Source: a bacterium
GTDB taxonomy: Bacteria; UBP6; UBA1177; JAKLFG01
Direction: 5' to 3'
Assembly: GCA_022709425.1 (NCBI GenBank)
Contig: JAKLIW010000001.1
Coordinates: 17,552-81,551, forward strand
Length of the DNA stretch: 64,000 nucleotides
Shown: positions 35,845-63,505 of the stretch, piece by piece
How the letters are laid out: each line of letters opens with the position of its first letter
Position numbering within the stretch: the stretch's first letter is position 1
Notes under the pieces: model-generated
Database searches by the model: none
The model's input: the letters and a program-made list of their open reading frames with translations, nothing else
What the model was told of the DNA's origin: nothing
Made by a program: the position numbers and the translations under genes

Positions 35845-35930
35845 AAAAATCAAGGCTAACAATGACTATTTTTTGCGAAATATCAAGGCTAACAAGAGCC
35901 ATTTATCACGAAAAATAAAGGCTAACGACC
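35845..35930. repeat. three tandem ~33-bp imperfect direct repeats (core A(T/A)CAAGGCTAAC(A/G)A) in an AT-rich intergenic island
   Basis: aaaaatCAAGGCTAACAAtg... / aaatatCAAGGCTAACAAga... / aaaaataAAGGCTAACGAcc..., each unit ending in CG. The local AT content contrasts with the genome GC. Confidence 0.6.
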
Positions 35931-35954
35931 AAATTTCTATGCGCGAGGAACGGG

Positions 35955-36887
35955 TCAGAAGACCAGAGAACACCCGCAACCGCCGTCCTTCGGCTTCACC
36001 GTGTCGGCGTCGGACGTGACATTATCAATTAAAGAGTCATCGGTTATTGTTGAATCTTCGTCTGTCTCGGCGACCTCTTCGCATATGCCGGTATCCTCAT
36101 TGCATACGAAGCCGTCAGGACAGCCAAAAGCCACACAATCGTCCGAGAAAATCTCGCCACCACAATCCCTTTGTGAGGGCTCGTAGCATTCTGCCTTCGT
36201 CAGACAGACACCCTTATGCAGTCGGAGTGGAACGTTCCTGTTAGTACGATACCATGTATTTTCGTCGCTCCCCGCCTCTTTGATGATTGCCGAGTTGGAA
36301 ATGATGCGGTTCGCAGGGATGCCCTCTTTCGGTATCACCATGAAGCGGATCAGCAGACTATCCGCACAAAACCAAGTTGACTGATCACAGTATTCCATGT
36401 AATCGGCTACCTTATATCCTTCGCCCGCGAGAGGAAAAGTATAGTTCATCCCATCAGGTATCGGTTGCCATACACGATATACATTGACATTGTAGTTGTC
36501 TACATCGGTCGCTATCTCGGTCGTGCCGGGCACATACTCAAGGGCATCATCCAGTTCGTCAACAAGAGTAACATTGTATGCGATATCCCAACCCCAATTC
36601 TGGAGCTTAACAAGAAAATACATCGCTCGACCTTCGCACCATGCATCGGCAGGATCAGTGTTGGTTCGACAGGAACAGGATATTTTCTCGCGACCATCAG
36701 GCCAAGCGGTTGCGTTTTCGGGAATGTCGAAATTCACACCGAAGTCGACGATCATATCTTCGTCGTTCAGAAGCGCATCTTCGTCCGCCGCTCCGGCGAC
36801 CACCACCGGCAGGAGGACCGCCGCAAAAAGTACCGAGAACAACGCTTTGCCGGACATGCCCCACTCCCCTTTGAAAAGATAGCGCAT
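35955..36887 (-). CDS. secreted Cys-rich protein ending in C-terminal GCGCSLVF tag (310 aa)
   Basis: Signal peptide (ALFSVLFAAVLLPVVVAGAAD), 16 Cys, an acidic Asp/Thr linker, then ...TVKPKDGGCGCSLVF immediately followed by the stop codon. Confidence 0.6.
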   Translation of the reverse strand: MRYLFKGEWGMSGKALFSVLFAAVLLPVVVAGAADEDALLNDEDMIVDFGVNFDIPENATAWPDGREKISCSCRTNTDPADAWCEGRAMYFLVKLQNWGWDIAYNVTLVDELDDALEYVPGTTEIATDVDNYNVNVYRVWQPIPDGMNYTFPLAGEGYKVADYMEYCDQSTWFCADSLLIRFMVIPKEGIPANRIISNSAIIKEAGSDENTWYRTNRNVPLRLHKGVCLTKAECYEPSQRDCGGEIFSDDCVAFGCPDGFVCNEDTGICEEVAETDEDSTITDDSLIDNVTSDADTVKPKDGGCGCSLVF

Positions 36888-37012
36888 GATAGCACAACGG
36901 CTCCTCTTGTCAAAGGGAAAAATGCCCCTTTTCAGAAAAATTTGCGGCGGCCGATTCCTTTTGTTAGGATGCCCCCGTGGTCGATCACTAACAGTTCAGA
37001 TAGGAGTCACTC

Positions 37013-39070
37013 ATGATCAGTCGCCAGATGTTGGAACCCAAGAGCATCGTCGTCGTCGGCGCCTCGAACGAACTGGCCAAGCCGGGTGGCAAGGTGCTCA
37101 AGAACCTCAAGGACGCCGGGTTCAAAGGCCCGATCTACGCCGTGAACCCGAAAGAGAAGGAGATACAGGGGATCGCGTGCCACGCCACGGTCGCCGATCT
37201 GCCGCAGGTCGATATGGCCATCATCGCGGTCGCCGCGAAGTTCTGCCTCGAAACGGTCACCATCCTCGCCGACCAGAAAGGGACCAAGGCCTTCATCATC
37301 CTCTCGGCCGGATTTTCGGAAGAGAGCGAGGCGGGCCGCGAACTGGAAAAAGCGATCGTCAAGAAGATCGAGTCGGTCGGCGGGTCGCTGGTCGGCCCCA
37401 ACTGCATCGGCGCGCTGACCACCCACTACGCCGGCGTCTTCACCACCCCCATCCCGCGGCTCGACCCGTTCGGCTGCGACCTCATCTCCGGCTCGGGCGC
37501 GACGGCGGTCTTCATCATGGAAGCGTCCATGCCCAAGGGGCTGTCGTTCTCCAGCATCTGGTCGGTCGGCAATTCGGCGCAACTCGGCGTCGAAGAGGTG
37601 CTCGCCCACCTCGACGAATCGTTCGACCCGAAGACGAGTTCCCGCGTGAAACTCCTCTATATCGAGAATGTGAAGAAGCCCGATATGCTTCTCAAGCACG
37701 CCCAGAGCCTCATCCGCAAAGGGTGCCGCATCGCCGCGATAAAGTCGGGTTCGTCCGAGGCGGGCAGCCGCGCCGCATCGTCCCACACCGGCGCGCTGGC
37801 CTCCCCCGACGCCGCCGTCTCGGCGCTCTTCCGCAAGGCGGGGATCGTCCGTTGCGCGGGGCGCGAGGAGCTGGTCGCGGTCGCGTCGGTCTTCATGCAC
37901 AAGGAACTGCAGGGGAAAAACATCGCCATCATCACCCACGCCGGCGGCCCCGCGGTCATGCTCACCGATTCGCTTTCCAATAACGGGCTTGAGGTGCCGC
38001 ATCTGGAAGGCGACGCGGCCAAGGATCTGCTCGCGAAACTGTTCCCCGGTTCGTCGGTCGGCAACCCGATAGACTTCCTCGCCACCGGCAGCGCCCAGCA
38101 ACTGGGCGAGATCATCGACGCCTGCGAAACCAAATTCAGCAACATCGACGGCATGGTGGTCATATTCGGGTCGCCCGGTCTCTTCCCGGTCTATGACGCC
38201 TACCGCGTGCTCGACGAGAAGATGAAAACCTGCAAAAAGCCCATCTTCCCGGTCCTTCCCAGCATCATCAACGCCGCCGACGAGGTGAAGGAGTTCCTGT
38301 CGAAAGGGCGCATCAACTTCCCCGACGAGGTGGTGCTCGGCAACGCCATCGCCAAGACGCTCCACACCGCCAAGCCGGCCCCCGCGAAGATAGAACTGCC
38401 CAAGATAGACACCGCCAAGATACGCACCGTCATCGCCGAAGCGAAGGAGGGCTACCTCGAACCGGCCGCCGTCCAGACACTGCTTGACGCCGCCGGCATC
38501 CCGCGCGCCGGAGAGGCGGTGGTCGCCAAGAAGGCAGACGCCGTCGCCGCCGCGAAGAAATTGGGCTATCCCGTCGTCATGAAGGTGGTCGGGCCGGTCC
38601 ACAAATCGGATGTGGGCGGGGTCGTGCTCGGCGTGAAGGATGACGCAACGGTCGAGAAGGAATTCGACCGGATGATGAAGATAAAGGAGACCACCGCCAT
38701 CCTCCTCCAGCCGATGCTGTCGGGCATCGAACTGTTCGCCGGGGCGAAGTTCGAGGAGAAGTTCGGGCACATGGTGCTGTGCGGACTGGGCGGCATCTTC
38801 ATCGAGGTGCTGAAGGATGTCAATTCGGGACTCGCGCCACTCACCAAGGACGAATCGCTCGCGATGATCCGGTCGCTCAAGGGCTACAAGATACTGAAGG
38901 GTGCCCGCGGCCAGCAGGCGGTGAGTGAAGAAAAACTCGCCGATGTGGTCGTCCGCCTCTCGGCGCTCGTCACCGCCGCTCCTGAAATATTCGAGATGGA
39001 CCTCAACCCGCTGCTGGGCAAAGGCGATCAGGTCGTCGCGGTCGACGCCCGCATCAGGATCGTGAAATAG
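37013..39070 (+). CDS. acetate--CoA ligase (ADP-forming) / NDP-forming acyl-CoA synthetase, fused alpha-beta
   Basis: N-terminal CoA-binding Rossmann (KSIVVVGASNELAKPGG), ligase-CoA domain, and C-terminal ATP-grasp (GYPVVMKVVGPVHKSDVGGV). 685 aa, with a good RBS (AGGAGTCACTCATG). Confidence 0.8.
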   Translation: MISRQMLEPKSIVVVGASNELAKPGGKVLKNLKDAGFKGPIYAVNPKEKEIQGIACHATVADLPQVDMAIIAVAAKFCLETVTILADQKGTKAFIILSAGFSEESEAGRELEKAIVKKIESVGGSLVGPNCIGALTTHYAGVFTTPIPRLDPFGCDLISGSGATAVFIMEASMPKGLSFSSIWSVGNSAQLGVEEVLAHLDESFDPKTSSRVKLLYIENVKKPDMLLKHAQSLIRKGCRIAAIKSGSSEAGSRAASSHTGALASPDAAVSALFRKAGIVRCAGREELVAVASVFMHKELQGKNIAIITHAGGPAVMLTDSLSNNGLEVPHLEGDAAKDLLAKLFPGSSVGNPIDFLATGSAQQLGEIIDACETKFSNIDGMVVIFGSPGLFPVYDAYRVLDEKMKTCKKPIFPVLPSIINAADEVKEFLSKGRINFPDEVVLGNAIAKTLHTAKPAPAKIELPKIDTAKIRTVIAEAKEGYLEPAAVQTLLDAAGIPRAGEAVVAKKADAVAAAKKLGYPVVMKVVGPVHKSDVGGVVLGVKDDATVEKEFDRMMKIKETTAILLQPMLSGIELFAGAKFEEKFGHMVLCGLGGIFIEVLKDVNSGLAPLTKDESLAMIRSLKGYKILKGARGQQAVSEEKLADVVVRLSALVTAAPEIFEMDLNPLLGKGDQVVAVDARIRIVK

Positions 39071-39610
39071 TTATCGCCTCTTCGGCAGACTCATGGTGGG
39101 TATCGGATCACCCGCCAACACTTCGTCCACATCGGGCAGTTCGACATCAGGCACTGCGTCGCCGGTCAGTATATCATCGTAATCAGGAACAATGACCTCG
39201 TCGGGTATCGGCGCACCACCAAGCTGTTCATCATAGTCCGACATCAGCGTATCGTCGGGTAGCGGCACATCGGGTATCGGCTCGCCACCCAACTCATCGT
39301 CGGCATCGGGCACCGCCGCATCATCAATCGGGAAATCGGGATCGGTCACCCCCTGCAGATCGGAGTAGTCGGGCTGATTCGTGTCGGGCTGATCAGTTGT
39401 ATCGACCGCGATCGAATCATCATCGGCCACCTGCACGCCGGTCGTTTCCACTTTATTCGTACAGCCGAATCCGCTGAAGAAGAAGAGGAACCCCACCACG
39501 AGGAAAAGGAACTTCAGCGGCCGCGCCTCAAGCCGCCCCGGACGGCGCCGTCCCACCGGATAACCGGGGTCGTAGCCGGTCACTTTGCGCACTTGGAAGT
39601 TCGTGTTCAT
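39071..39610 (-). CDS. membrane-anchored acidic tandem-repeat protein (DYD/PIPD repeats)
   Basis: Basic N-terminus, then a TM/lipobox-like FLFLVVGFLFFFSGFGC. After that come repeats such as LGGEPIPDVPLPDD / LGGAPIPDEVIVPDYDD / LTGDAVPDVELPDVDE / LAGDPIP. Confidence 0.5.
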   Translation of the reverse strand: MNTNFQVRKVTGYDPGYPVGRRRPGRLEARPLKFLFLVVGFLFFFSGFGCTNKVETTGVQVADDDSIAVDTTDQPDTNQPDYSDLQGVTDPDFPIDDAAVPDADDELGGEPIPDVPLPDDTLMSDYDEQLGGAPIPDEVIVPDYDDILTGDAVPDVELPDVDEVLAGDPIPTMSLPKRR

Positions 39611-39619
39611 GGCCTCACC

Positions 39620-40750
39620 TCACACAATGTCTATCGGTTCTATTTCCTTCTTATAATGCTTCCGCATGAAGACCGGGTTCTTTTCGGCGATGAGTTCGCG
39701 CGCCAGCCGGTCGGCTATCGGGATGAGCATCGATTCGTTGGCGCACAGCACACCCGGCACGGTGGTCATCTCGCCGGTCGTGTCCCAGTTGAGGCACGGG
39801 CAGTAGGTGAAGCACCGGCCGTCGAGCGAACAGCCCTGACAGTTGGTGCGCGGCTTCAGGTTCTCGGCCGCGATCTCGTGGCATTTCTTCATGATGAAGC
39901 CGGTGTCGACATGGCCCATCACGAACCCCGCCGCCCGCTCCGGCTTCCCGGCGAACCGGACGCACGGGAATATCCGGCCATCCTCGGCCACCGCGAAGAT
40001 GTTGCGCCCCACATCGCAGAAATCGCCGGGGCGGAAGCCGCCTTTGATATGCGCCGCGATATGAGCGTCGAAGAGCGAGTAGTAGAACAGATCCTTTTTG
40101 CGGGTCCGCGACCGTTCCAGATACCACTCGGCCAGTTTCTCGTACTGTTCTTTTAAGGTATAGAGCCCCGCCTCGTCCCACTTCGCGGTGTAGTCGACCA
40201 CCGGGACGAAGTTGCGGATGCCGAGGTCGTCCATGACATGGAGCGTCGAATCGTAGAGCCGATGCGCCGTCGCGGGAGAGACGACCGCCACCGCGACGAG
40301 GTGTTTCGCTTTTTTGTAGAGCGTCGGCAGGTGTTTGACGACGGCAGCGTAACTGCCGTGTCCGTCGTTGAAGGGGCGGTTCGCGTCCTGTGCCGCCGGG
40401 ACGCCATCGAGCGACAGTTCGACCGTCAGTTTCTTCTTCGCGATCCAGTCGATGATCTCGGGGGTGATGAGGGTCCCGTTGGTGGCGACATGGAGTTTGA
40501 GCGCGACGCCGAGTTTCTTCGCCTTCTTTTCGGCGTAGTCGGTCACTTCGCGCATGACATCGAACCGCAAGAACGGTTCGCCGCCGAAGAAGCTGATGCG
40601 CGCTTTCTTCTCCTCCACCGACTTCTCCAGAACGAGGTCGGCCGCCTTGAGCGCAACTTCTATAGGCATATGAGACTTCTCATGTTTCTCGACATAGCAG
40701 TAGGAGCATTTCAGGGTGCATTGGCGGGTCAGGAACAGGATCGCATGCAT
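39620..40750 (-). CDS. radical SAM / SPASM-domain peptide-modifying enzyme
   Basis: CxxxCxxC (RQCTLKCSYCYV) and a glycine-rich SAM motif (FFGGEPF). C-terminal auxiliary-cluster Cys pattern CQGCSLDGRCFTYCPCLNW...GVLCA (SPASM/twitch). Confidence 0.8.
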   Translation of the reverse strand: MHAILFLTRQCTLKCSYCYVEKHEKSHMPIEVALKAADLVLEKSVEEKKARISFFGGEPFLRFDVMREVTDYAEKKAKKLGVALKLHVATNGTLITPEIIDWIAKKKLTVELSLDGVPAAQDANRPFNDGHGSYAAVVKHLPTLYKKAKHLVAVAVVSPATAHRLYDSTLHVMDDLGIRNFVPVVDYTAKWDEAGLYTLKEQYEKLAEWYLERSRTRKKDLFYYSLFDAHIAAHIKGGFRPGDFCDVGRNIFAVAEDGRIFPCVRFAGKPERAAGFVMGHVDTGFIMKKCHEIAAENLKPRTNCQGCSLDGRCFTYCPCLNWDTTGEMTTVPGVLCANESMLIPIADRLARELIAEKNPVFMRKHYKKEIEPIDIV

Positions 40751-40817
40751 GGCTCACTCCAGCAAAGACGCCCCTTTAGTATAAGGAAAGGAAACCTTTT
40801 ATCAAAGAAATTAAACC

Positions 40818-42089
40818 CTATTCCTGTGACGGGTCTTCGACCTTGCCCATGAACAGGATGGTGCCCGAACGGTCGTCGCGAATGACGAACACGAAGGGTT
40901 TGGTAGCGTAGAAACCTTCCGGCACCGATGTTTCGCCCACCTCGACCGATGTGACCGCCGCCGCCTCGGTCCCCTGCTCGTTGACCTCGATGTAGGTCTT
41001 GTGCTTCACCTCGGAGACATAAAGCCCTTCGCCCTGATCGGCCATGTTCAGAAGGCCGCCCGGCGCGAAAAGCTGTTCCATGCCGAGCGCCTGAAGTATC
41101 TCGTTGAGCGACTTCTCGTAGGCGAACTTGAAGCGCGGCAGAAGCACCGGCACCTCTTCGGTGGCGACGAGGTTGGTGAAGAACCCGTCGAGCCCTTCGT
41201 CGGCCATCCGCCCGATGAAGTCGTCCACCGTCCCGTCGTTCGGGATGAAGCCGTAGAAGGCGAACTTGTCGCGGCCGTAGGGAAGCCGCACCGCGCTGTA
41301 GCCGCCCGCGGCGCCGTAACCGCTGGAGAAGAATTTGAACTCCTGCGCCTCTTTGAAGGTCATCATCTTGACCGTCTTCTGCGTGCCGTCGGTCAGTTCG
41401 AACTGGCCGTCGTAGGTGCGATCCTCGTCGAAGGTGACGGTCCACGCCGCCTTGAAATAGAGGGCGTTGATGAGGAACATGACGGTGTCGTCGTTGATAT
41501 CGTCGATGATCTTCTCTATCTTGCCGTTGGTGTTGTCGCTCACCCACTGATTGATGAGGTCCACGGTAGCGGTGTCGGCCATGTCGACCGTGTAGGGTTC
41601 CGCCTCGAAAGAGGCAAGGAGCGCCTCCTTGAAGGCCGTCTTGACGCGCGGTTCGAACAGGTCGTCCATCCAGATCGAGTTGGCGATGGCGAGCACCATG
41701 TCCTTGTCGGCCGATTCAAGGCTCTTGATGAGGTGGAGGAACTGCGCGTCGATCGCGGCGAGCGTCAGGTCATCGAACCCGAGCACCGTCTGCATCTCGG
41801 TCAGATTGTCGCCCGAGGCACCGTTCATCGTCATCGCGAGCGCCAGCTCTATCGACAGCGGCGATATCATGAGGTTCTTCCCCTGTTCGGCGGTCGCCAT
41901 GACCTCGAAGATGCGCGCCGCGAAGTCGTTGTTGGCGGCGACCACAGCGGGACTCACCGCCGCCGCGTGTTCGTCGGCCGCCTGATATTTCACCGTGGTC
42001 GCGGGATCTTCCTTCTGGTCATCACCACCGCAGGAAACGAAAAGGCCAAGCATTCCGAATAATACCGTGAGAACGAGAAACCGTTTCAT
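40818..42089 (-). CDS. serpin-family serine protease inhibitor, lipoprotein
   Basis: Lipobox LGLFVSCGGDDQ. Serpin hinge/RCL and C-terminal signature (...EEGTEAAAVTSVEVGETSVPEG...FVFVIRDDRSGTILFMGKVEDP). Confidence 0.75.
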   Translation of the reverse strand: MKRFLVLTVLFGMLGLFVSCGGDDQKEDPATTVKYQAADEHAAAVSPAVVAANNDFAARIFEVMATAEQGKNLMISPLSIELALAMTMNGASGDNLTEMQTVLGFDDLTLAAIDAQFLHLIKSLESADKDMVLAIANSIWMDDLFEPRVKTAFKEALLASFEAEPYTVDMADTATVDLINQWVSDNTNGKIEKIIDDINDDTVMFLINALYFKAAWTVTFDEDRTYDGQFELTDGTQKTVKMMTFKEAQEFKFFSSGYGAAGGYSAVRLPYGRDKFAFYGFIPNDGTVDDFIGRMADEGLDGFFTNLVATEEVPVLLPRFKFAYEKSLNEILQALGMEQLFAPGGLLNMADQGEGLYVSEVKHKTYIEVNEQGTEAAAVTSVEVGETSVPEGFYATKPFVFVIRDDRSGTILFMGKVEDPSQE

Positions 42090-42153
42090 AGCATCCTCCA
42101 TCGAACAGGTCCGGCCCTTTAGTATAAGGAAAGGGACTCTTTTATTGAAAAAC

Positions 42154-43686
42154 TTATTCGGCGACCCGCTTCATGAGCAGGATATCGGCAGATTCATCAT
42201 AGTAGAGCGCCTTATCGGCCTGCGGGCTGGACTGTCCGGTAAGATAGAGTTCTCCCGCCGGTCCGGCGATCACTGCGCCGGCGGTCTCGCTACCCGCATC
42301 ACCGTACAGTTTACTCCACAATTCGACCCCTTCGGCGCTCCATGCCGAAAGAAAGATATCGGCGCCGCCCGCGTTGACCAGAGCATCCCAGACTCCGTAG
42401 GTATGACCCGTCACGAATATCGTTCCCGCATCGTCGATGGTCATGCCGAAGGCCTGTTCGTTGAGCGCGCTACCCCACTGCACCATCCATATCTCACTCC
42501 CGTCAGTGGGATCGATCTTGGAAAGGAACAGGTCGCTTCCCCCCTGAGAACTGCTTCTGTCGAGAGAACCGGAGGTCCCGGCGACATAGACATAACCATT
42601 CCGCGCTACGACCGCTGCCGTGGTCATCGCGCCGCCATCCGGGGTTATCCGCGTCGTCCATTGTTCGATACCGTCGGAGCTCAGCTTGGTAACGAAGGCG
42701 TCATATATCAAATCGCCGGTATTGAGCGGCATGTGCAGATCGATGTTGCCGGCGACATACACCGAACCCGCGTCATCGACCGTCACCGCACTACCGCTAT
42801 CGGCCGCGCCGGTCCCCCATTGCCGGGTCCAGAGTTTGGTCCCCGCCGCATCCCATTTGGTCAGGAAGATATCGCTGCACGGCGGCGCTCCGTAGCCCGA
42901 ATCGCACAGATCGTCCCGCTGGAGCGTGTTGCCGTCGAGCGAACCGTGGGTGTCCCCGGTGACATAGAGTGCGCCGGCACCGTCGATCGCTATGCTGCGG
43001 CCATAGTCCTCCGCAGTCTCCACACCCCACGACCGCATCCAAAGCGACGAACCGTCGGCCGCCCATGCACCAACAAAGATGTCGGGGCAGGGATACAGGT
43101 GACGACCATAGCCGCAGGTATGCAGAGGAGGCTCCGATCCATCGAGCGGCCCGGCGGCCCAACCGGCCACATAAATGGTCCCGTTACCGCCGACCGCCAC
43201 GGCGGCGGCGTTGTCATCATTCTGCGAACCGAACTGCCGGGCCCACACCGGTGTGCCGTCGGAACGCCAATGGGCGATGACCGCGTCGCTGAGACCGACA
43301 CGCGTATTGCCGTCGAGGGTGCTCCACGTCGCACCGGCGACATAGATATCCTCTGCGCCCTTCAGCGCCAATGCGTTACCCACATCGTACGAATCGCTCC
43401 CCCAGCGCACCGTCCACGATTCATCGGAGCCGAAGCCCTCGGCATCGGGAAGTTCACCCCCCTCGCTCAGCAAATCGTCACCCTCGTTTAACAGCGCATC
43501 GCCCTCGCTCAACAACTGATCGCTTTCGCCCGGGTCATCGCCCGACAACATGCTATCGGCATCCTCCGACGCCGCATCGGTATCGACGATAGCGGCATCA
43601 CTATCGGCGGCGTTTTGGGTGGTCGAATTATCACAAGAGATCAGGCCGCAGAGCACAACTACAAAAAGCATTAGGATCTTTTGCAT
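42154..43686 (-). CDS. beta-propeller repeat lipoprotein (SBBP/delta-60-like repeats)
   Basis: Lipobox VVVLCGLISCDNS and an acidic linker. About 8 repeats of the pattern G.iYVAG.t.GsLDG...Gg.DiFl.KwdadGt.lWt.qwG.. Confidence 0.55.
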   Translation of the reverse strand: MQKILMLFVVVLCGLISCDNSTTQNAADSDAAIVDTDAASEDADSMLSGDDPGESDQLLSEGDALLNEGDDLLSEGGELPDAEGFGSDESWTVRWGSDSYDVGNALALKGAEDIYVAGATWSTLDGNTRVGLSDAVIAHWRSDGTPVWARQFGSQNDDNAAAVAVGGNGTIYVAGWAAGPLDGSEPPLHTCGYGRHLYPCPDIFVGAWAADGSSLWMRSWGVETAEDYGRSIAIDGAGALYVTGDTHGSLDGNTLQRDDLCDSGYGAPPCSDIFLTKWDAAGTKLWTRQWGTGAADSGSAVTVDDAGSVYVAGNIDLHMPLNTGDLIYDAFVTKLSSDGIEQWTTRITPDGGAMTTAAVVARNGYVYVAGTSGSLDRSSSQGGSDLFLSKIDPTDGSEIWMVQWGSALNEQAFGMTIDDAGTIFVTGHTYGVWDALVNAGGADIFLSAWSAEGVELWSKLYGDAGSETAGAVIAGPAGELYLTGQSSPQADKALYYDESADILLMKRVAE

Positions 43687-43765
43687 GGCAGACTCCCCCA
43701 ACAGACAACAACAACTCATCGTAGCGGTATAGACCTTTTCGGTAGAGAAAAGGTTCTTTCTGAGG

Positions 43766-43830
43766 GTGAAAAAAACGGGGGGTCTTGCGACCCCCCGGAA
43801 CCTTCCGGTCCCTTGTCAAAGGGACCTTGA
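43766..43830 (-). terminator. tandem hairpins plus U-tract terminator downstream of gdhA
   Basis: On the minus strand: GGTCCCTTTGACAAGGGACC ... CGGGGGGTCGCAAGACCCCCCG TTTTTTTCACCC. Two GC hairpins, the second followed by a T7 tract. Confidence 0.55.
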
Positions 43831-43841
43831 CGGGATTTTAA

Positions 43842-45188: not shown

Positions 45189-45399
45189 ATCCTCCAGAAA
45201 AAAAACAATTAAACATCCGCACACGCGGAAGCCGCTTCCACTTAACCCTCTTTTATATATATTGTCAAGCAAAATTTTAGGAAACTGTTAGTAAGTTTTT
45301 CCTTTGTGATTTCAATGGGTGTTGAAAAAATCGCGGTTTTTTTTGCTTGTTTCACAAAATACCTCAATAAATAGACGGAGAACGGTTCACTAAAGGAGC

Positions 45400-46011
45400 A
45401 TGAAGGCTGTGGCGCAGATCACACACCCGGTTCTTGGAGAAATGAAGGATGAGGCCCTGCTTGACTTGGCTCTGAACAAGAACCAAGGGGCATGGCGGGA
45501 GCTGGTACGGCGCTACCACGGCAAGGTGAGCGCGACGGTGTACCGGATCTACGGATCGAAACCGGAGGCGGAGGATATCGTGCAGGAGATTTTCATCGAA
45601 CTCGCTAAATCGGCGAAGAATTTCCGGCGCGACGCCTCTTTCTCGACCTTCCTGTACCGCATATCGGTCAATACCGCATACCGCTACATTAAGCGGCACA
45701 AGGACCCGAGCATCATTTCCCAACCGATAGAATTTTTCGCCAACCTCGCCTCCGGGCAGGAAAAAGAGAAAGAGGAGTCGCCCGCGGCGGCGCTTATGGC
45801 GACCGAAAGTCATGAACAGGTGCATGAGGCGCTCGGCAAGATATCGGCCGAGAAACGGATGGCGCTGGTGATGTTCGAGATCGAGGGATTGACCCTCAAA
45901 GAGATAGCGGAACTCCTGAAGGTACCGTTGCAGACGGTGTGGTCACGCGTCTACAACGGCCGGAAGGATATGGCACGATTACTAACTAAAGCATACGGCA
46001 CGGCGTCATGA
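45400..46011 (+). CDS. ECF-type RNA polymerase sigma factor (sigma-70 region 2/4)
   Basis: Region 2 (VQEIFIELAKSAKNFRRDASFSTFLYRISVNTAYR) and region 4 HTH (LTLKEIAELLKVPLQTVWSRVYNGRKDM). Confidence 0.8.
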   Translation: MKAVAQITHPVLGEMKDEALLDLALNKNQGAWRELVRRYHGKVSATVYRIYGSKPEAEDIVQEIFIELAKSAKNFRRDASFSTFLYRISVNTAYRYIKRHKDPSIISQPIEFFANLASGQEKEKEESPAAALMATESHEQVHEALGKISAEKRMALVMFEIEGLTLKEIAELLKVPLQTVWSRVYNGRKDMARLLTKAYGTAS

Positions 46012-47165
46012 ACGAAAAACATCTTTCCATCGCGGAGCTTACCGCTCTGACCGAACGGGGCGCGGAACTCACCCCGGAGATGGCGGAACATCTCGACCGG
46101 TGCGCCGAATGCGCCGATCTGCTGGAACGGCATCTCGCCGCCGAACCGCTATTGACCCTCGCGGCGGCCGACGACGCGGCGATAGACCGTATCGCGGCGC
46201 GGAGCTTCGGCTACCTTGCGGATGAGAAGCCCGGCTTCTTCGCGGCGCTCTTCACCCTGCCCCGCATCGCGCTCGGCGCGGCGGCGGCGCTCGTGATCGT
46301 CGCGGCCTACTTCGGGTTCGCCACCAGTACCACCACCGACGAGTCGAAGTTCGTCGATAACGATCCGGCCCCCAAGACCGCCCCGGCGCTCGACGCCACT
46401 CCGCGCGCTTTCGCCGACGGCGTCGCGATAGCCCACGGCCGCGCCGCCCTAACGGTCAAGGGAACCGCCACGCTTGCCGCCGACGGCGCCGAAACGCTGC
46501 GTCTCGCGAAAGGCACCGTCGAGGTATCCATAGAGAAAGGGAATGATTTCATCATCCATACCGCCGACCGCTATATGGTCCGCGTGCTCGGCACCCGCTT
46601 CACGCTCGACACCGACGGCGTGAAACTCACCGTGACGGTCACCGAAGGGCTGGTCGAGGTGATCGACGGCCGCTCCAACGACTCGGTCGCTCTCTCCGGC
46701 GGCATGTCGCGCACCTTCGCCGACGAACCGAAGGCGGTTGTAGCGATCCCGAAGGAACACCGCGCGATCAAGGCGACGGTTCCGGAACCGGTCGCCGTCG
46801 AGCCCGCCTCGTTCCTGAAAATGGGCCGCGGCGCGCTCAAGGCCAACGATGCGACCACGGCGATGGGCTGGTTCGAAAAGGAACTCGCCGAGGGCGCCGA
46901 GAAAGACAAGGCGCTCTTCGAGATCGTGCGGCTCCATGAGAAGGAGGGCCGTTTCGGCGACATCCTCGCGGTGCTCAAAGCGCACGGCGAGATCGTGGAC
47001 GGCGGTTCGGTATTTCGCGAAGAACTGCTCATCAAAGGGTGCAAGGCCGAGGTGAAGCAGAGCATCGGAACCCTTCCTTCGTGCAGAAAATACTTGCAGG
47101 TTTTCCCCGCCGGATATAAAAAGGACGAGATCCGCGACCTTCTGGAGAATGGTGATGCGCGCTGA
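46008..47165 (+). CDS. anti-sigma factor (zinc-finger N-terminus, single TM, periplasmic FecR domain + TPR-like tail)
   Basis: Start overlaps the sigma-factor stop (ATGA). HLDRCAECADL zinc-finger-like N-terminus, TM LPRIALGAAAALVIVAAYFGF, and FecR-like VRVLGTRFTLDTDGVKLTVTVTEGLVEVID. Confidence 0.65.
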   Translation: MNEKHLSIAELTALTERGAELTPEMAEHLDRCAECADLLERHLAAEPLLTLAAADDAAIDRIAARSFGYLADEKPGFFAALFTLPRIALGAAAALVIVAAYFGFATSTTTDESKFVDNDPAPKTAPALDATPRAFADGVAIAHGRAALTVKGTATLAADGAETLRLAKGTVEVSIEKGNDFIIHTADRYMVRVLGTRFTLDTDGVKLTVTVTEGLVEVIDGRSNDSVALSGGMSRTFADEPKAVVAIPKEHRAIKATVPEPVAVEPASFLKMGRGALKANDATTAMGWFEKELAEGAEKDKALFEIVRLHEKEGRFGDILAVLKAHGEIVDGGSVFREELLIKGCKAEVKQSIGTLPSCRKYLQVFPAGYKKDEIRDLLENGDAR

Positions 47166-47883
47166 CATCGCGATCATAGCGGCGCTTCTAGCGCTTTTAC
47201 TTGTCGCCTCGTGCGAACAGGTCATCGAACTCGACAAGAGTCTTTCCGGCGCAGAGGGAAGCAGCACCGATGATCAGAAAGACACCGCCGACGGCACCGG
47301 CGGCAACCCCGCCGAAGATATCGCCGAAGGGCCCGACTCTCCGGGCAACGGCGCCTATAACGACTCGGCGGCCAGCGCCGACACCGCCGCACCAGCGACC
47401 GATGACTACAACAATCAGGACGGCGCCGATGACGAGATGGCCGCCGACAACGCCACGATGCCCGACACCGCAGTTTCCGACGACGCCGAAGTAAGCGACG
47501 ACGACCCGACCTCGTCGTTCTCGGCCGCCGACTGTGCCTGCGGCGATGATCCGCTCTACGAACCGGTCTGCTGCGACGGCGTGACGACCGTTTTCAACAC
47601 CTGCTTCGCCAATTGCCTTAACTACCATACCGGACAGTGCGCCTCACAGCAGAACGGGACCTGCGCCACGCAAGGAGGCGAGAACGACGCCGACACCGAT
47701 ACGGCATCCTCCCCCGACGACGATGCCGTTGTCGAAACGCCCGACGACGATTCCATAACGGTCGGCGGCTGCGGCTGTGTGCCGACCGATATGAACGCGT
47801 GGTGCTGTGACGGCGGAACGCGCTATATCAGCGAGTGTACGGCGACCTGTGAATGCGAAGGGGCCGCCGCCCCCTGCGACTGA
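47149..47883 (+). CDS. secreted lipoprotein with two Kazal-like protease-inhibitor domains and an acidic linker
   Basis: Lipobox LLLVASCEQ. YEPVCCDGVTTVFNTCFANC and AWCCDGGTRYISECTATCEC fit the Kazal P-V-C-x-x-D-G-x-T-Y-x-N-x-C-x-x-x-C pattern. The internal motif GGCGCVP resembles the C-terminal tag found elsewhere in the window. Confidence 0.5.
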   Translation: MVMRADIAIIAALLALLLVASCEQVIELDKSLSGAEGSSTDDQKDTADGTGGNPAEDIAEGPDSPGNGAYNDSAASADTAAPATDDYNNQDGADDEMAADNATMPDTAVSDDAEVSDDDPTSSFSAADCACGDDPLYEPVCCDGVTTVFNTCFANCLNYHTGQCASQQNGTCATQGGENDADTDTASSPDDDAVVETPDDDSITVGGCGCVPTDMNAWCCDGGTRYISECTATCECEGAAAPCD

Positions 47884-47898
47884 TATCCGGGAGGATCT

Positions 47899-48379
47899 CA
47901 TGACGAAAGGTTTTTACAAACTCATGTGCTTCGCGACGGCCGCCGCGATGTCGATCATCGGTTGCGGCCCCGAGAACGATCCTCCGCTCGAGTACGGCCC
48001 CGGTCCGACCGATTACGATCAGTACCAGACCGACAACGACGAATACACCGACGCCACCAAATACGGTATCGCCGACACCGATTTCGCACCGGCCGACGCC
48101 GACGAACCGATCATCTCCGACGACCCAGCCATGGAATACGGCCCGGTACAGACCGACTACGATAATTTCCCCAGCGACTTCGACACCCTTTACGGCCCCC
48201 CCGACACCGATTACGCCGACGCCGACGAACCGATCATCTCCGACGACCCAGCCATGGAATACGGTCCGGTGCAGACCGACTATGACGAACTGGCGACCGA
48301 CGCCGACGCGATCATCGAACAGCCCGACGAAATGACCACCGACTACGGCCCGATATCGCGGCCCTTCGTCAAGAAATGA
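47899..48379 (+). CDS. acidic tandem-repeat lipoprotein (EYGPxxTDYD repeats)
   Basis: Lipobox MSIIGCGPEN. Repeats ...EYGPGPTDYDQYQTDNDEYTDA... plus two near-identical 123-nt units (48092-48214 / 48215-48337) encoding ADADEPIISDDPAMEYGPVQTDYD. The stop overlaps the next gene's start. Confidence 0.55.
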
Positions 48380-49464
48380 GCATCAAGCGCGTCGCCAAGC
48401 GGGCGCTGCTCCCCTTAAAACAGCACTACGAGCGGAAACTCCATGAATTGCGCTACATCTTCTTTGAGTTGACCCACCGCTGCAATATCGCCTGCATCCA
48501 CTGCGGTAGCGACTGCCAGAAGAACGACACCCTGCCCGACCTCCCCGCCGACAAGATACTCGAGACGCTCGACGGCATCAAGACGAAGTACGATTCCCAC
48601 AAGGTGATGATCGTCCTCTCGGGCGGCGAACCGACGATATATCCCGGCGTCTGGGACCTCGGCAAGGAGATCATCAAGCGCGAATTCCCGTGGGGGATGG
48701 TCACCAACGGCTACGCGTGGGACACCGAGATGATCAAGAAGGCCAAAGAGGCGCGGATGCATTCGGTCACCGTATCGCTCGACGGCCTTGAAGAGACCCA
48801 CAACTGGCTGCGCGGCGACAAAAAATCGTTCCGCAAAGCGGTGAACGCCATAGAACTGCTCCTCAAGAACCCCTTCTACCGCGTGATGGATGTCATCACC
48901 TGCGTCAACAAGCGCAACATCGGCGAACTCGATAAGATATACGACCTCGTGAAATCGATGGGGCTCAAACGGTGGCGCTTCTTCACCATCTCCCCCATTG
49001 GCCGCGCGGTGCAGACCCCGGATCTGTTCCTCGGCAAAGAGGATTTTCATTATCTCATGCAGAAGATAATCGCCTACCGCAAAAAGCCGGGGATGAAGGT
49101 CACCTACTCCGAATCGGGCTATCTCGGCTGTTACGAACACCGCGTCCGCGGCCACGACTGGTTCTGCCGCGCCGGGGTCAATGTCGCGGGGATCATGGTC
49201 AACGGCGATATACTCGCCTGCCCCAATATCGACCGCCGCTTCAAGCAGGGCAATGTCTTCGAACAGCCATTCATCGATGTCTGGGAGCACGGCTACAAGG
49301 AATTCCGCGACCGCAAATGGATGCGGACCGGCGACTGCGTGAAGTGTCCCGAATGGCGGCTGTGTCAGGGAAATCCGATGCACCTGTGGGACCTCGACAC
49401 CAACCGAACGAAGCTCTGCCATCTGAAGCAGTTCGAACTCGACCGGCCGATCGTCGGCACATGA
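48376..49464 (+). CDS. radical SAM / SPASM-domain peptide-modifying enzyme (second copy, different subfamily)
   Basis: CxxxCxxC (HRCNIACIHCGSDC), SAM glycine motif (LSGGEPT), and C-terminal SPASM Cys cluster (CRAGVNVAGIMVNGDILACPNI...GDCVKCPEWRLCQGNPMH). Confidence 0.8.
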   Translation: MSIKRVAKRALLPLKQHYERKLHELRYIFFELTHRCNIACIHCGSDCQKNDTLPDLPADKILETLDGIKTKYDSHKVMIVLSGGEPTIYPGVWDLGKEIIKREFPWGMVTNGYAWDTEMIKKAKEARMHSVTVSLDGLEETHNWLRGDKKSFRKAVNAIELLLKNPFYRVMDVITCVNKRNIGELDKIYDLVKSMGLKRWRFFTISPIGRAVQTPDLFLGKEDFHYLMQKIIAYRKKPGMKVTYSESGYLGCYEHRVRGHDWFCRAGVNVAGIMVNGDILACPNIDRRFKQGNVFEQPFIDVWEHGYKEFRDRKWMRTGDCVKCPEWRLCQGNPMHLWDLDTNRTKLCHLKQFELDRPIVGT

Positions 49465-49543
49465 CAAAAAACTGAAAAAAATCTGGTTTTTTTTGTCCGA
49501 AAAGGCATTATGCGTCGATTGTTTTTTTGAGCACCGTCGCCCT

Positions 49544-49618
49544 ATGAAGAATCGCCTGCTCGCGCTGGTCAAACGGACCGTCACCAGCAACGGCTGCGGC
49601 TGTTCGGTGTTGTTCTAG
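49544..49618 (+). CDS. 24-aa peptide MKNRLLALVKRTVTSNGCGCSVLF (candidate RiPP precursor / tag-only ORF)
   Basis: ATG 80 nt downstream of the SPASM gene stop. Ends in the same GCGCS-hydrophobic-F C-terminus as the 310-aa and 968-aa proteins. The first 12 codons and the upstream leader are duplicated at 53258-53374. Confidence 0.4.
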   Translation: MKNRLLALVKRTVTSNGCGCSVLF

Positions 49619-49702
49619 GGCGCAATTCTCTTCGGAAAATCACCTCCGTCTTGACATCATATCGTCCGTTGGTACAATGGGCCGGAACCGGGAGAGGGAC
49701 CG

Positions 49703-50014
49703 ATGAAACTCGCCGACATCTTGGACGCCATTGCCAAAGAACATTACCGGGTCACCGAACACGCCGATGACGAGGCGCAGAACGACCGGCTTTTGTACGA
49801 GGACATCTTCGAGTCGGTCCTGCACGGCGAGATCATCGAGGAATACCCGAAAGACAAGCCCTGTCCGAGCATCCTCATAGCGGGAAAGAACTACCGCGAA
49901 GAGCCGATACATTCGGTGTGGGGATACAACGAAGAGAACGGGTACGCGATACTCATAACGGTGTATCGTCCCGATCCGAAGCGGTGGATAGAGAACAAGA
50001 AGCGGAGGAAATAG
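49703..50014 (+). CDS. DUF4258-family toxin-like protein
   Basis: 103 aa with ...HADDEA...EEYPKDKPCPSILIAGKNYREEPIHSVWGYNEENGYAILITVYRPDPKRW, matching the DUF4258 consensus (HVV...VITVY.PD..W). Followed 2 nt later by a YgiT zinc-finger gene. Confidence 0.6.
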   Translation: MKLADILDAIAKEHYRVTEHADDEAQNDRLLYEDIFESVLHGEIIEEYPKDKPCPSILIAGKNYREEPIHSVWGYNEENGYAILITVYRPDPKRWIENKKRRK

Positions 50015-50016
50015 CC

Positions 50017-50259
50017 ATGCTTCCTTTCAAAAAATGTCCGACCTGCGGCGGCGCCGTGGTGAAGAAAGAGGTCGAGAAGATCGTCAAGGGCGGTAACGAC
50101 ACCGCCGTGCTCAAGGTGGTCGCCGAGGTCTGCGAGAAATGCGGTGAGCGACTTTACACACCGGCGCAGGTGAAACGGTTCGAAGCGTTCCGCAAGATGC
50201 TGTTCCAGAAAAAGCCGGTCGGGCTTAAAGCGGTCGGCCGCTCCTATGTCACGGCATAA
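50017..50259 (+). CDS. YgiT-type zinc-finger protein (MqsA-family antitoxin-like)
   Basis: MLPFKKCPTCGGAVVKK...VVAEVCEKCGERLYTP: a CxxC...CxxC zinc ribbon typical of the YgiT/MqsA N-terminal domain. 80 aa. Confidence 0.6.
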   Translation: MLPFKKCPTCGGAVVKKEVEKIVKGGNDTAVLKVVAEVCEKCGERLYTPAQVKRFEAFRKMLFQKKPVGLKAVGRSYVTA

Positions 50260-50324
50260 TCGACTTCATCTTTCAATTTGACAATCTTTCCGATTTCTGA
50301 TTAAATCCAGCAGAATATCTTTCA

Positions 50325-53231
50325 TTGAACCGGGGGCGGGCCGTGCGGAACATACTTCTTGCGATGATCGGGCTGATGCTTGTCGCGTGCGGCGGCGAGA
50401 TGCCGTCGGCCGACGGGCCAGCCACCGCCAACCTCACCCCGCCCGAATTCGCATGGGAAGAAGAAGCGCCGGTAGGTGGTTTCGACAGTCCATCCGCCCG
50501 CTACGCCGTTCCCGGCGATGAGCGGTGGGTGTCGATGAATCCGGAAATACCGGGGACGGATGGTACGATATACGCTATGGCGCGGCATGGCGATTATCTC
50601 TACATCGGTGGCTCTTTTACTATCGTGAAGGATATTGTGGCGAACCGGATAGCACGACTCACGATCTCAACCGGTCAGTGGAGCGCACTCGGAAGCGGGA
50701 TGGATGGTACTGTATATTCTCTTGTGGTGGATGGCACGGGCAATCTCTATGCCGGCGGGTACTTTGCCACTGCGGACGGAATAATAGTGAACCGCGTCGC
50801 GAAATGGGATGGCACAGCATGGAGCGCGCTGGGGACCGGGATGGATAGCGCGGTGTATGCCCTTGCGGTGGATGGCGATGGTACCCTCTATGCCGGTGGT
50901 GATTTCACGACGGCGGGCGGGGTGTCGGCGAACCGTATTGCAAAATGGAATGGCACCCAGTGGGGTACCATCAATAATGGGATGAATGGTGGTGTTTATT
51001 CTCTAGTATTGGATGGGAATGGTAATCTCTATGTTGGAGGATACTTCACCACGGCGGATGGTGTGGCGACAAATCGCATCGCAAAATGGGACGGTGCTGC
51101 ATGGAGCGCACTCGGGAGCGGTATGAGCGACTCCGTCCGCGCCCTTGCGATAGATGGCGAGGGCACCCTTTACGCTGGCGGAAAATTCAAGACGGCGGGA
51201 GGGGTGTCGGCCAATAGGATCGCGAAATGGGACGGCACCTTATGGAGCGCACTCGGGATCGGGATAACCGATATTGGTGTTGACCCGTGTGTGTATACCA
51301 TTACGGTGGCCGGTGACGGGACCCTCTATGCTGGCGGTGATTTCACGACGGCAGATGGAATGACGGCGAAATATATCGCGAAATGGGATGGTACGATTTG
51401 GAGTGCAGTTGATAGTGGGATGAATGACCATGTCAAAATCCTTGTGATTGCCGGTGATGGCACCCTCTACGCCGCCGGCTCTTTCACGACGGCAGGTGGA
51501 GTGACAGCGAATCGTATAGCTCAGTGGGATGGCTCTTCTTGGTTTTCTCCTGGGTATGGTGTGAGCAACCCTGTCCATGCTCTTACATTTGATGATGTGA
51601 GCAACCTCTTTCTTGGCGGATACTTTACCCACGCGGGTGGGGTGGCCGCGAACCGCATCGCCAAGTGGGACGGCGCGACTTGGAGTCCTCTTGGGGGGGG
51701 AATGGATAAATTTGTCGAATCTCTTGCGTTAGATGCAGGTGGCAATCTCTACGCTGGAGGGAAGTTTGACACCGCAGGTGGGGTGTTGGTAAATCGTATC
51801 GCGAAATGGGACGGTGCCGAATGGATAGCCCTCGATAGTGGGATGACGGGAGAAGACCCGGGAGTCTTTGCCCTCGCGTTAGATGATACGGATAATCTTT
51901 ACGCCGGAGGAGGATTTATCACTGCGGGCGGGGTGGCGGCGAAACACATTGCAAAATGGGACGGCACGGTGTGGAGCAACCTCGGGAACGGGATGGATGC
52001 TTATGTTTATGCCCTTGTAATGGATGATGCGGGAAATCTTTACGCCGGAGGAAGCTTCACCACTGCGGGCGGAGTGGCGGCGAAATACATCGCGAAATGG
52101 GACGGGACCTCGTGGAGTGCCCTTGGAAGCGGGATGGATAAGTATGTCAATACCCTTGTATTCGATGATGCTGGGAATCTCTATGCCGGCGGAGGTTTTA
52201 CCACCGCAGGCGGGGTGACGGCGAACCGCATTGCCAAATGGGATGGAGTCGAATGGAGCGCATTGGGAACAGGGGTAAATAACTATGTCCGCATATTGAC
52301 AGTTGATGGAACAGGCAATCTCTACGCCGGAGGAGGTTTCACTATAGCGGGCGGTGTAACGGCAAATTACATTGCAAAGTGGAATGGTATCGCATGGAGT
52401 GCCCTCGGTGGTGGGATGAATAATAGTGTTGAAAGCCTTGCGATTGACGGGAATGGTGATCTATATGCCTGTGGATTCTTTACGACGGCTGGCAACAAAT
52501 TAAGTCCTTATATCGCCAAGTACATACTCTCCGACGAAGACCCCGTCACTCCCGACGATGATGTCCTCCTCTCCGAAAGCGATGCTGTCACCTCTGACGA
52601 TGACGCTCTCCTCGCCGAAAGCGAATCTCTGTTGACGGAGGACGACACGGTCATCATCATAACTGACACCGTGATCGAGCCCGACGATGCGGTCATTCTC
52701 CCCGACGAGGACTCTGTGATCGAACCCGATGACGAAGATGCTTACCCCGAGGTTTACCACCCCGACACTTTCTACGAGATCGACCCGGTCGACGAAATAT
52801 CAGTGCCCGATGAAGTAGTGGACGACATCCAGCCGGACGAACCCGTCGCCGATGATGTGGTCGACGAGACGGTCGATGCCACGCCGGACGATTACTACGA
52901 GATAGACGCTGTTGACGAGATATCGGTCCCCGACGACACCGTTGACGATACCCCCGATGAAGACACGACGGTCAGCGCCGACACGAACGATGCCGCAACG
53001 GACGAAGATACTGCGCAACCGGATGAAACAACGGACCAAACGAGCGACACTGCCACCGACACCTTCCAACCTGACGAAACGGTTGATGAATCCGTTGATG
53101 CGACGACCGACGAAAGCATCGACGGCACCATCGATGACGATTCTCCGCTCACGACTCACGATTCACTGATCACCGACACCGACACCACCAAGCCTACCGG
53201 CAACGGCTGTGGATGTTCCCTCGCCTTCTAG
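50325..53231 (+). CDS. large beta-propeller repeat lipoprotein (968 aa) with acidic C-terminal repeats ending in the GCGCSLAF tag
   Basis: Lipobox LMLVACGGEM. About 17 repeats of LYAGG.FTTAGGV.ANRIAKWDGT.WSALGSGM (delta-60/SBBP-like). C-terminal acidic YEIDxVDEISVPD repeats, then ...DTDTTKPTGNGCGCSLAF followed by the stop codon. Confidence 0.65.
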   Translation: MNRGRAVRNILLAMIGLMLVACGGEMPSADGPATANLTPPEFAWEEEAPVGGFDSPSARYAVPGDERWVSMNPEIPGTDGTIYAMARHGDYLYIGGSFTIVKDIVANRIARLTISTGQWSALGSGMDGTVYSLVVDGTGNLYAGGYFATADGIIVNRVAKWDGTAWSALGTGMDSAVYALAVDGDGTLYAGGDFTTAGGVSANRIAKWNGTQWGTINNGMNGGVYSLVLDGNGNLYVGGYFTTADGVATNRIAKWDGAAWSALGSGMSDSVRALAIDGEGTLYAGGKFKTAGGVSANRIAKWDGTLWSALGIGITDIGVDPCVYTITVAGDGTLYAGGDFTTADGMTAKYIAKWDGTIWSAVDSGMNDHVKILVIAGDGTLYAAGSFTTAGGVTANRIAQWDGSSWFSPGYGVSNPVHALTFDDVSNLFLGGYFTHAGGVAANRIAKWDGATWSPLGGGMDKFVESLALDAGGNLYAGGKFDTAGGVLVNRIAKWDGAEWIALDSGMTGEDPGVFALALDDTDNLYAGGGFITAGGVAAKHIAKWDGTVWSNLGNGMDAYVYALVMDDAGNLYAGGSFTTAGGVAAKYIAKWDGTSWSALGSGMDKYVNTLVFDDAGNLYAGGGFTTAGGVTANRIAKWDGVEWSALGTGVNNYVRILTVDGTGNLYAGGGFTIAGGVTANYIAKWNGIAWSALGGGMNNSVESLAIDGNGDLYACGFFTTAGNKLSPYIAKYILSDEDPVTPDDDVLLSESDAVTSDDDALLAESESLLTEDDTVIIITDTVIEPDDAVILPDEDSVIEPDDEDAYPEVYHPDTFYEIDPVDEISVPDEVVDDIQPDEPVADDVVDETVDATPDDYYEIDAVDEISVPDDTVDDTPDEDTTVSADTNDAATDEDTAQPDETTDQTSDTATDTFQPDETVDESVDATTDESIDGTIDDDSPLTTHDSLITDTDTTKPTGNGCGCSLAF

Positions 53232-53257: not shown

Positions 53258-53374
53258 ATGACGAAAACTGAAAAAAATCTGGATTTTTTTGTCCGAAAAG
53301 GCATTATGCGTCGATTGTTTTTTTGAGCACCGTCGTCCTATGAAGAATCGCCTGCTCGCGCTGGTCAAACGGAC
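53258..53374 (+). repeat. 117-118-nt direct repeat (second copy; first copy 49461-49578): shared leader + start + first 12 codons (MKNRLLALVKRT)
   Basis: ATGAC(A/G)AAAACTGAAAAAAATCTGG(A)TTTTTTTGTCCGAAAAGGCATTATGCGTCGATTGTTTTTTTGAGCACCGTCG(C/T)CCTATGAAGAATCGCCTGCTCGCGCTGGTCAAACGGAC. About 98% identical. The copies diverge immediately after GGAC. Confidence 0.7.
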
Positions 53375-61456: not shown

Positions 61457-61562
61457 CGTCGGGATACCGTACCGGATTCACTTTTCTTGTCAATGTTATA
61501 TCGCCCCTTGCAAAACGAACAAGGGTGTGGTAAGAAGCCCCCGTCGTTCTTTAACATCAACG

Positions 61563-61658: not shown

Positions 61659-61663
61659 AATTC

Positions 61664-63295: not shown

Positions 63296-63355
63296 TATCG
63301 GCAAAACCGTCCGTAAAAACTTGCCTATTCCCGATATTCTGGTAGATTAGCCCGA

Positions 63356-63448: not shown

Positions 63449-63505
63449 CGGTTATGCGTTTCTGTACATATCCTTTGAACAACGAACTTTGGGGAGGATA
63501 AGATC

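Follow-up and report, generated by a model that had tools for sequence, protein, structure and literature searches.

A short cysteine-containing sequence, GCGCS[LV][LAV]F, stands directly before the stop codon of three open reading frames (ORFs) in a 64,000-nucleotide stretch of bacterial DNA (assembly GCA_022709425.1, contig JAKLIW010000001.1, positions 17,552 to 81,551 of the forward strand; the whole stretch is called the window below). We show here that it is a lineage-specific and modular C-terminal tag, apparently undescribed so far. Two of the three ORFs encode large exported proteins, termed P310 and P968, and the third has 24 codons (Table 1). We give about an even chance to the tag being a lineage-specific sorting or anchoring signal, whose Cys would be modified, and whose hydrophobic end would be recognised and might be cut off, by housekeeping enzymes with genes elsewhere.

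The shared ending was first noticed in an initial annotation made from the letters of the window. Translation confirmed all three ends, and a degenerate DNA pattern for GCGCS-x-x-F-stop gave three matches in the window against 0.00 expected (100 shuffles). In six frames the window holds four GCGC peptides, three of which are the tag tails. The fourth lies in a lipoprotein at 47149-47883, inside the second of two Kazal-like Cys-rich domains (domains judged by eye), and was rejected as a tag because it belongs to that unrelated domain. The export signals and acidic low-complexity linkers ascribed to the large proteins were also borne out: P310 has a type I signal peptide, P968 has a lipobox, and both linkers are 36% Asp and Glu. 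A recent duplication, raised in the initial annotation as another source of the shared end, was rejected. Over their last 93 nt the P310 and P968 genes share 52% identity, and most synonymous sites within the motif are different; the tails are therefore not recent DNA copies. We likewise rejected stop read-through or recoding that would conceal a transmembrane segment, since translation past the three stops gave nothing hydrophobic downstream and all three stop codons are used. The layout is thus, as first described, that of a sorting tag which lacks a transmembrane helix and a basic tail, with Ser and three residues preceding the stop.

The genome-wide scan proposed in the initial annotation was carried out with a DNA pattern for the tag against one genome per species and gave at least 116 matches in at least 111 stretches. 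True tagged long ORFs with an acidic linker number at least 55, in at least 10 species-level metagenome-assembled genomes (MAGs), with 1-11 per genome among the matches listed, and share the end consensus ...PD.DT.K[PK]K[DE]x-GCGCS-[LVI][VLIA]F-stop. Again among the matches listed, four host MAGs are labelled 'uncultured Spirochaetales bacterium' and the others 'bacterium'; one host genome is a complete 2.95-Mb chromosome. A scan of metagenomes added at least 54 further tagged ORFs from digester and sludge samples. Searches of protein databases with a tail profile were less suited to the task: an exhaustive search of 1.84 billion representative proteins gave 2 matches at E ≤ 0.001, the motif being too short for HMMER at such a size, and a word-index search returned 12 candidates, none of them scored, which is uninformative for so short a motif.

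Several observations argue for selection on the tag as a protein sequence. TGG is found at the stop position in none of the 55 family matches as against 22 of the 61 chance matches, among the matches listed. There are at least 89 distinct tail DNAs, and all synonymous codons occur at the G, C, G, C, S and F positions, which points to selection at the protein level. Moreover, the 359 ORFs of the lineage loci include variant tails found independently of the search pattern, namely GCGCALLF, GCSCSLIP, GCGCALVI, GCGCFLVI and GCSCAMIEF. Within GCGCS only the middle Gly and the Ser change in these variants, and both Cys are invariant across all tails, those variants included; in the 55 + 54 tails of the two scans GCGC is fixed by the pattern. 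None of the 359 ORFs has an internal GCGC except the Kazal-like protein, so that the motif is essentially never internal. The tag is therefore a conserved, strictly C-terminal family that is selected at the protein level and present in many copies per genome. Its motif can be written G-C-[GS]-C-[SA]-hydrophobic-hydrophobic-[F/I]-COOH, preceded by PD.DT.K[PK]K[DE]x and a long, disordered acidic spacer.

By homology the tagged ORFs form at least 15 clusters, unrelated to one another. Carriers include DUF5122/Rax2 beta-propellers, an S8 subtilase, GH18 and metallophosphoesterase proteins, proteins with Ephrin-receptor-like Cys repeats, PepSY-containing proteins and DUF11/DUF7619 proteins. Where the N-terminus can be read, nearly all have a type I signal peptide or a lipobox; for the few that have no signal, translation probably starts at a codon other than the first in-frame Met. 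This range of hydrolases, propellers and adhesin-like proteins is the profile of the substrates of a protein-sorting system, and the proposal that the shared C-terminus is a tag is upheld by its modular occurrence behind acidic linkers on Sec-exported proteins.

The P968 family is the largest among the carriers, with at least 29 ORFs in at least 9 assemblies. P968 itself likely starts at GTG 50343 or TTG 50325, and with either start its lipoprotein signal ends in LVAC. Its blade repeat of 47 residues (IAKWDG...) corresponds to a 141-nt DNA repeat family, and its Pfam matches are to Rax2, DUF5122 and Reg_prop. P310 is held at NCBI as HOW50831.1 under the name 'hypothetical protein', and its passenger matches a DUF11-type repeat and DUF7619, both weakly. 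A protein homology search with P310 returned itself alone; among the fetched loci there are six homologous ORFs from other species, which with P310 make a family of seven, and six of these end in the tag.

Lastly, we surveyed the neighbourhoods of about 100 tagged genes over a 4-kb range, which gave 206 dereplicated neighbour families for a Pfam scan. No conserved neighbour was found, as no family among the 206 occurs more than three times, and the recurrent neighbours that could be identified are housekeeping genes (NadA, ThiG, aminotransferases). Tagged genes are dispersed among housekeeping neighbours and any machinery would be unlinked to them.

The 24-residue ORF and other orphan tails

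The initial annotation took the 24-residue ORF for a peptide substrate of the enzyme gene upstream of it, a radical S-adenosylmethionine (rSAM) protein with a SPASM domain. This did not hold. Codons 1-12 (to 49578/49579) are a copy of the start of the sulfatase-like gene that follows P968, and they belong to a 111-nt direct repeat that also duplicates the leader of that gene with 98% identity. The remainder (to 49618) is an orphan 3′ end, ..VTSNGCGCSVLF and stop, which corresponds to the final 12-13 codons of a tagged gene. The displaced copy sits just after the rSAM gene and is fused in frame to this orphan end, and the 3.8-kb segment between the repeats holds a DUF4258/MqsA toxin-antitoxin pair and the P968 gene.

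The copy downstream of P968 is the native one, as the position of the sulfatase-like gene after P968 is kept in two other species. At one of these loci (L064) the same intergenic sequence and a MK.RLLAL.KR start are found 3′ of the P968 orthologue; at the other (L028) the intergenic region is kept and the start, MKAKLIGLLKN, is more divergent. The 24-residue ORF is absent from the genomes whose rSAM gene is at least 90% identical to that of the window, where a SecA or ParE toxin gene takes its place. Chimeric and absent from related genomes, it does not behave as an independent, conserved short-precursor gene, and the alignments indicate that it is a rearrangement scar. A third tagged gene, now lost, was once present at this locus, as follows from the orphan tail that ends at 49618. 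More generally, a short ORF beside an rSAM gene need not encode a peptide precursor and may have been left by recombination.

Two further orphan tails were found. One, in a related MAG (locus L012; 3651-5901, minus strand), lacks a start codon and has an IS3-family transposase on one side and a divergent Lgt gene (88 bits against a cutoff of 334) on the other; the Lgt gene is followed by an apparent glyS. At locus L109 a tagged ORF of 25 residues, MNLNVTIPDDGKKPKDNGCGCSLVF, lies about 55 nt 3′ of an rSAM/SPASM gene whose product has an apparent N-terminal region like PqqD or a recognition element (RRE) of ribosomally synthesised and post-translationally modified peptides (RiPPs).

Known sorting signals and a possible role for the tag

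The proposal that this is not a described tag family was well founded. No tag model in NCBIfam 20.0 or Pfam matched the tails even at E ≤ 10, which covers the suggested comparison with C-terminal sorting models, including MYXO-CTERM (TIGR03901, run against 3 + 60 tails) and those for PEP-CTERM, GlyGly-CTERM, JDVT, Synerg, CGP, LPXTG and Por_Secre_tail, the C-terminal domain of type IX secretion. Searches of the literature gave no paper with the tail strings and none on a Cys tag in spirochaetes.

The closest parallel is MYXO-CTERM. Its signature has an invariant Cys, with a 'GCGC motif' as hallmark, and it is cleaved by the CPBP/Rce1-family myxosortase MrtX after presumed lipidation of the Cys (10.1101/2023.06.07.544157; PMC11980579); the Cys-modifying enzyme is still unknown in that system too (PMC11980579). 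Like MYXO-CTERM, the tag described here is a C-terminal element of Sec-exported proteins of many unrelated families, would be expected dozens of times per genome on genes that are unlinked to a sorting enzyme, and combines a GCGC signature and its Cys with location on signal-peptide proteins. Faint NCBIfam matches (E 0.1-0.2) also link 7 of 60 tails to two full-length myxosortase-dependent/MYXO-CTERM-anchored families, as against one tail each to three unrelated families. Unlike MYXO-CTERM, it lacks both the transmembrane helix and the Arg cluster and has only four residues after the second Cys, and its hosts are not Myxococcota. With two of the three defining elements absent and no match to the TIGR03901 model, the tag is not a member of MYXO-CTERM.

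In other respects the tag resembles a CAAX box, which also places a Cys signal at the very C-terminus with a few aliphatic residues after it and a small basic patch just upstream; moreover, the Rce1 family that processes CAAX proteins processes bacterial Cys-type tags as well. The tag differs in reading C-x-a-a-X, with its last Cys fifth from the end (C-S-L-V-F) and a second Cys two residues before, and in being carried by bacterial, extracytoplasmic proteins with signal peptides. Among the fetched loci we found no prenyltransferase or CPBP protease for it. With PEP-CTERM, GlyGly-CTERM, JDVT-CTERM, Synerg-CTERM, CGP-CTERM and LPXTG the tag has in common its modular C-terminal position, a spacer-rich region upstream, restriction to a lineage and many cargo families, whereas those signals are built of a motif, a transmembrane segment and a basic cluster. 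To our knowledge, every described short prokaryotic C-terminal sorting signal has this tripartite form.

We suggest that the tag acts as a sorting or surface-anchoring signal served by housekeeping machinery that is encoded elsewhere in the genome. After export, one or both Cys thiols would probably be modified, most plausibly by a lipid. The short hydrophobic S-x-x-F end would probably be read at its free carboxyl terminus and might then be cut off. By analogy, the logic would be that of a CAAX box, or of MYXO-CTERM minus its transmembrane helix and Arg cluster. In its strongest form this would make the tag the first bacterial 'CAAX-type' sorting signal, a Cys tag that spans no membrane and is read at the free C-terminus of exported proteins, lipidated on Cys and trimmed, as in a minimal MYXO-CTERM pathway; we regard this specific form as doubtful.

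A number of points weigh against a sorting signal of this kind. A crude motif search of the fetched DNA (about 1.4 Mb, some half of which comes from the tagged lineage) gave no credible CPBP/Rce1-like protease, and the sole Lgt seen among the fetched loci in the CPBP/Lgt motif scan, that of L012, is probably a housekeeping enzyme. It is unclear how a tail that has no transmembrane helix would be presented to a membrane enzyme, and several carriers are already N-terminal lipoproteins, for which another lipid anchor would be superfluous. The last Cys stands one residue further from the end than the fourth-from-last Cys of a CAAX box. Modification of Cys and cleavage of the tail are both proposed from sequence. 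The faint NCBIfam matches to MYXO-CTERM-anchored families are individually non-significant. Lastly, two of the three orphan tails (those of the window and L109) lie directly 3′ of rSAM/SPASM genes of different families, a coincidence for which we have no explanation.

If the tag does act in sorting, Cys-type sorting can take place without membrane insertion of the tag, and the unlinked enzymes of a CAAX-type tag would include the still unknown Cys-lipidating transferase of the MYXO-CTERM pathway. With about 100 sequences and one complete chromosome, the family is large, clean and thus suited to phylogenetic profiling, by which the Cys-modifying enzyme could be found. For this uncultured digester lineage, the tag also points out the proteins that are probably secreted or displayed at the surface.

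Alternative explanations and the radical SAM genes

The tail could instead be a free-carboxyl ligand (hydrophobic-x-hydrophobic-COOH, ending in Phe) for a periplasmic PDZ protease or chaperone, or for an outer-membrane export or assembly factor, and serve as a secretion or quality-control signal with no covalent change to Cys. Motifs with a terminal Phe serve as recognition signals in outer-membrane proteins and are also read by PDZ proteases (DegS, Prc/Ctp). A position strictly at the extreme C-terminus, a near-invariant hydrophobic-hydrophobic-Phe end and a cargo of exported hydrolases and surface-type proteins would all suit such a ligand. However, the invariance of both Cys in G-C-G-C would be left without explanation, variants ending in I, P or EF exist, and no PDZ protein recurs among the 206 neighbour families. 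We consider a ligand of this type unlikely.

A second alternative, put forward in the initial annotation, ties the tag to the two rSAM/SPASM genes that lie within a few kb of the tags in the window. The Cys-Gly-Cys end would then be a recognition or modification site for a thioether, another crosslink or C-terminal oxidative chemistry, installed in the cytoplasm before export and possibly in trans on all carriers. Short, Cys-rich C-terminal targets are in principle within reach of such maturases (TIGR04133 'rSAM with lipoprotein', PapB-type ranthipeptides, MftC), and the mycofactocin maturase MftC, for one, has a ..CGVY at the extreme C-terminus as its target. The two orphan tails that follow rSAM/SPASM genes of different families also speak for a connection, as does the enzyme at L109, which has the apparent RRE/PqqD-like region noted above and is lineage-specific: its orthologues, one of which lies on the same contig as the window, are 68-74% identical, and beyond these, homologues are at most 43% identical. 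The normal substrate of this enzyme type, a peptide of 31 residues (..KETAKPTANTDQCQYCCGKTIC), has a T.KP[TK]...C.(x)C flavour in common with the tag.

Nevertheless, the adjacency is not conserved. Orthologues of the TIGR04133-like enzyme with at least 90% identity, in two related genomes, have no tag within ±10 kb; instead a small acidic lipoprotein with EYGP..TDYD repeats is found upstream of them, and this lipoprotein, which matches no NCBIfam model, is likely the partner of the enzyme. The PapB-like enzyme lacks an RRE, and the 24-residue peptide of the window is a chimera. Across the neighbourhoods radical SAM accounts for just 2 of the 206 families. A tagged substrate conserved beside its maturase, as in RiPP systems, was looked for and not found. 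At L109 itself the pairing was rejected as a genuine one, since in five other species the orthologous enzyme is followed by the conserved, Cys-rich peptide of 31 residues and a leucine-rich repeat gene, with no tag; L109 is therefore a breakpoint. Both rSAM/SPASM genes of the window fall below the family cutoffs (Table 1) and belong to small-lipoprotein systems of their own. The tie between the tag and nearby rSAM/SPASM enzymes is thus not sustained, and we think modification of the Cys-Gly-Cys end by such enzymes, for instance in trans, unlikely.

Also unlikely, in our judgement, is a redox or metal-binding role for the CGC pair, in which an intermolecular disulfide or a metal would tether the protein to a partner on the cell surface or link tagged proteins with one another. 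CXC/CGC motifs are redox-active, and the long flexible spacer ends in two invariant Cys with a Gly between them. Against this, the hosts come from anaerobic digesters and sludge and the window encodes a tungsten-type aldehyde:ferredoxin oxidoreductase, which makes periplasmic disulfide chemistry less likely; the hydrophobic S-x-x-F at the exact C-terminus is left without explanation, and no partner gene recurs in the neighbourhoods.

The surroundings of the rSAM genes hold further features. An apparent five-gene operon at 45400-49464 (plus strand) encodes an extracytoplasmic function (ECF) sigma factor, a FecR-type anti-sigma factor, a lipoprotein of 244 residues with two Kazal-like Cys domains, an acidic EYGP..TDYD lipoprotein of 159 residues (with a 123-nt tandem repeat) and the TIGR04133-like enzyme. 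At 39071-40750 (minus strand) an acidic repeat lipoprotein of 179 residues is encoded 3′ of the PapB-like enzyme; its sole Cys is that of the lipobox, which would make it an odd substrate for a thioether-forming family.

The enzyme type seen at L109 is itself of interest. At L124 (6001-7435, on the window's contig and outside the window), and also at L125-L130, an apparent RRE-bearing rSAM/SPASM gene is followed after about 60 nt by the 31-residue peptide MAKKPVIVKKETAKPTANTDQCQYCCGKTIC. The pair is present in six loci inspected, from several related species. Against NCBIfam the enzyme scores below every cutoff and the peptide has no match, and the two look like an undescribed RiPP pair.

Other features of the window

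The coordinates of the tagged ORFs, the repeat and the neighbouring genes are collected in Table 1.

Table 1. Features mapped in the window, in order of position.
Feature	Position	Strand	Remarks
rRNA operon, complete	14119-19126	minus	5S 14119-14234, 23S 14293-17223, 16S 17602-19126
Two spacer tRNAs of the rRNA operon	17360-17431, 17479-17552	minus	
Additional tRNA	23448-23521	minus	
P310 gene (310 aa)	35955-36887	minus	Translation; ends VKPKDGGCGCSLVF and stop; exported, type I signal peptide (...VVVAGA/AD), Cys-rich DUF11/DUF7619-like passenger, acidic linker, tag
P310 tag	35955-35981	minus	GCGCSLVF and TGA stop
P310 acidic linker (33 aa)	35982-36080	minus	36% D/E; last residues DADTVKPKDG, fitting the family consensus PD.DT.KPKD
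PapB-like rSAM/SPASM gene	39620-40750	minus	228 bits, cutoff 340; without RRE domain
rSAM/SPASM gene nearest TIGR04133	48376-49464	plus	391.5 bits, below the cutoff of 425
Direct repeat, copy 1 (111 nt)	49468-49578	plus	Repeat search and alignment, 98% identity; displaced duplicate of sulfatase-like gene leader and 12 codons
Short ORF (24 aa)	49544-49618	plus	Translation; MKNRLLALVKRTVTSNGCGCSVLF and stop
DUF4258 toxin and MqsA-like antitoxin pair	49703-50259	plus	Precomputed Pfam, identical contig
P968 ORF	50325-53231	plus	Translation; ends TKPTGNGCGCSLAF and stop
P968	50343-53231	plus	Lipoprotein (lipobox LVAC), about 13 beta-propeller blade repeats, acidic linker, tag
P968 acidic linker (225 aa)	52530-53204	plus	36% D/E; sole basic residue is the K of TKPT
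P968 tag	53205-53231	plus	GCGCSLAF and TAG stop
Direct repeat, copy 2	53264-53374	plus	Repeat search, alignment; native, between P968 and the sulfatase-like gene
LtaS/sulfatase-like membrane transferase (627 aa)	53340-55223	plus	Synteny with P968 orthologues kept in at least 3 species

Two sets of short repeats lie around P310. Three tandem 33-nt repeats (AAAAATCAAGGCTAACAA...) occupy 35845-35943, in the spacer between the P310 stop and an AAA_14/DUF4143 ATPase gene. A 45-nt element is found three times, at 36899-36943, 40769-40813 and 42112-42156, with 62-82% identity; on the minus strand its copies are directly upstream of P310, the PapB-like rSAM gene and a serpin gene, and it may be a shared promoter or leader.

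Between the two rSAM regions, at 40818-43719 (minus strand), are genes for a serpin lipoprotein and an SBBP beta-propeller lipoprotein, both with lipoboxes and no tag; the latter is LipL53-like (143 bits against a cutoff of 400). Towards the end of the window, three Moco/tungsten riboswitch aptamers fall within 5 kb, at 58760-58879 (minus), 61551-61672 (plus) and 63344-63464 (plus), in the company of the aldehyde:ferredoxin oxidoreductase gene (56550-58757, minus), a ThiS-like gene and a MoaA-like rSAM gene.

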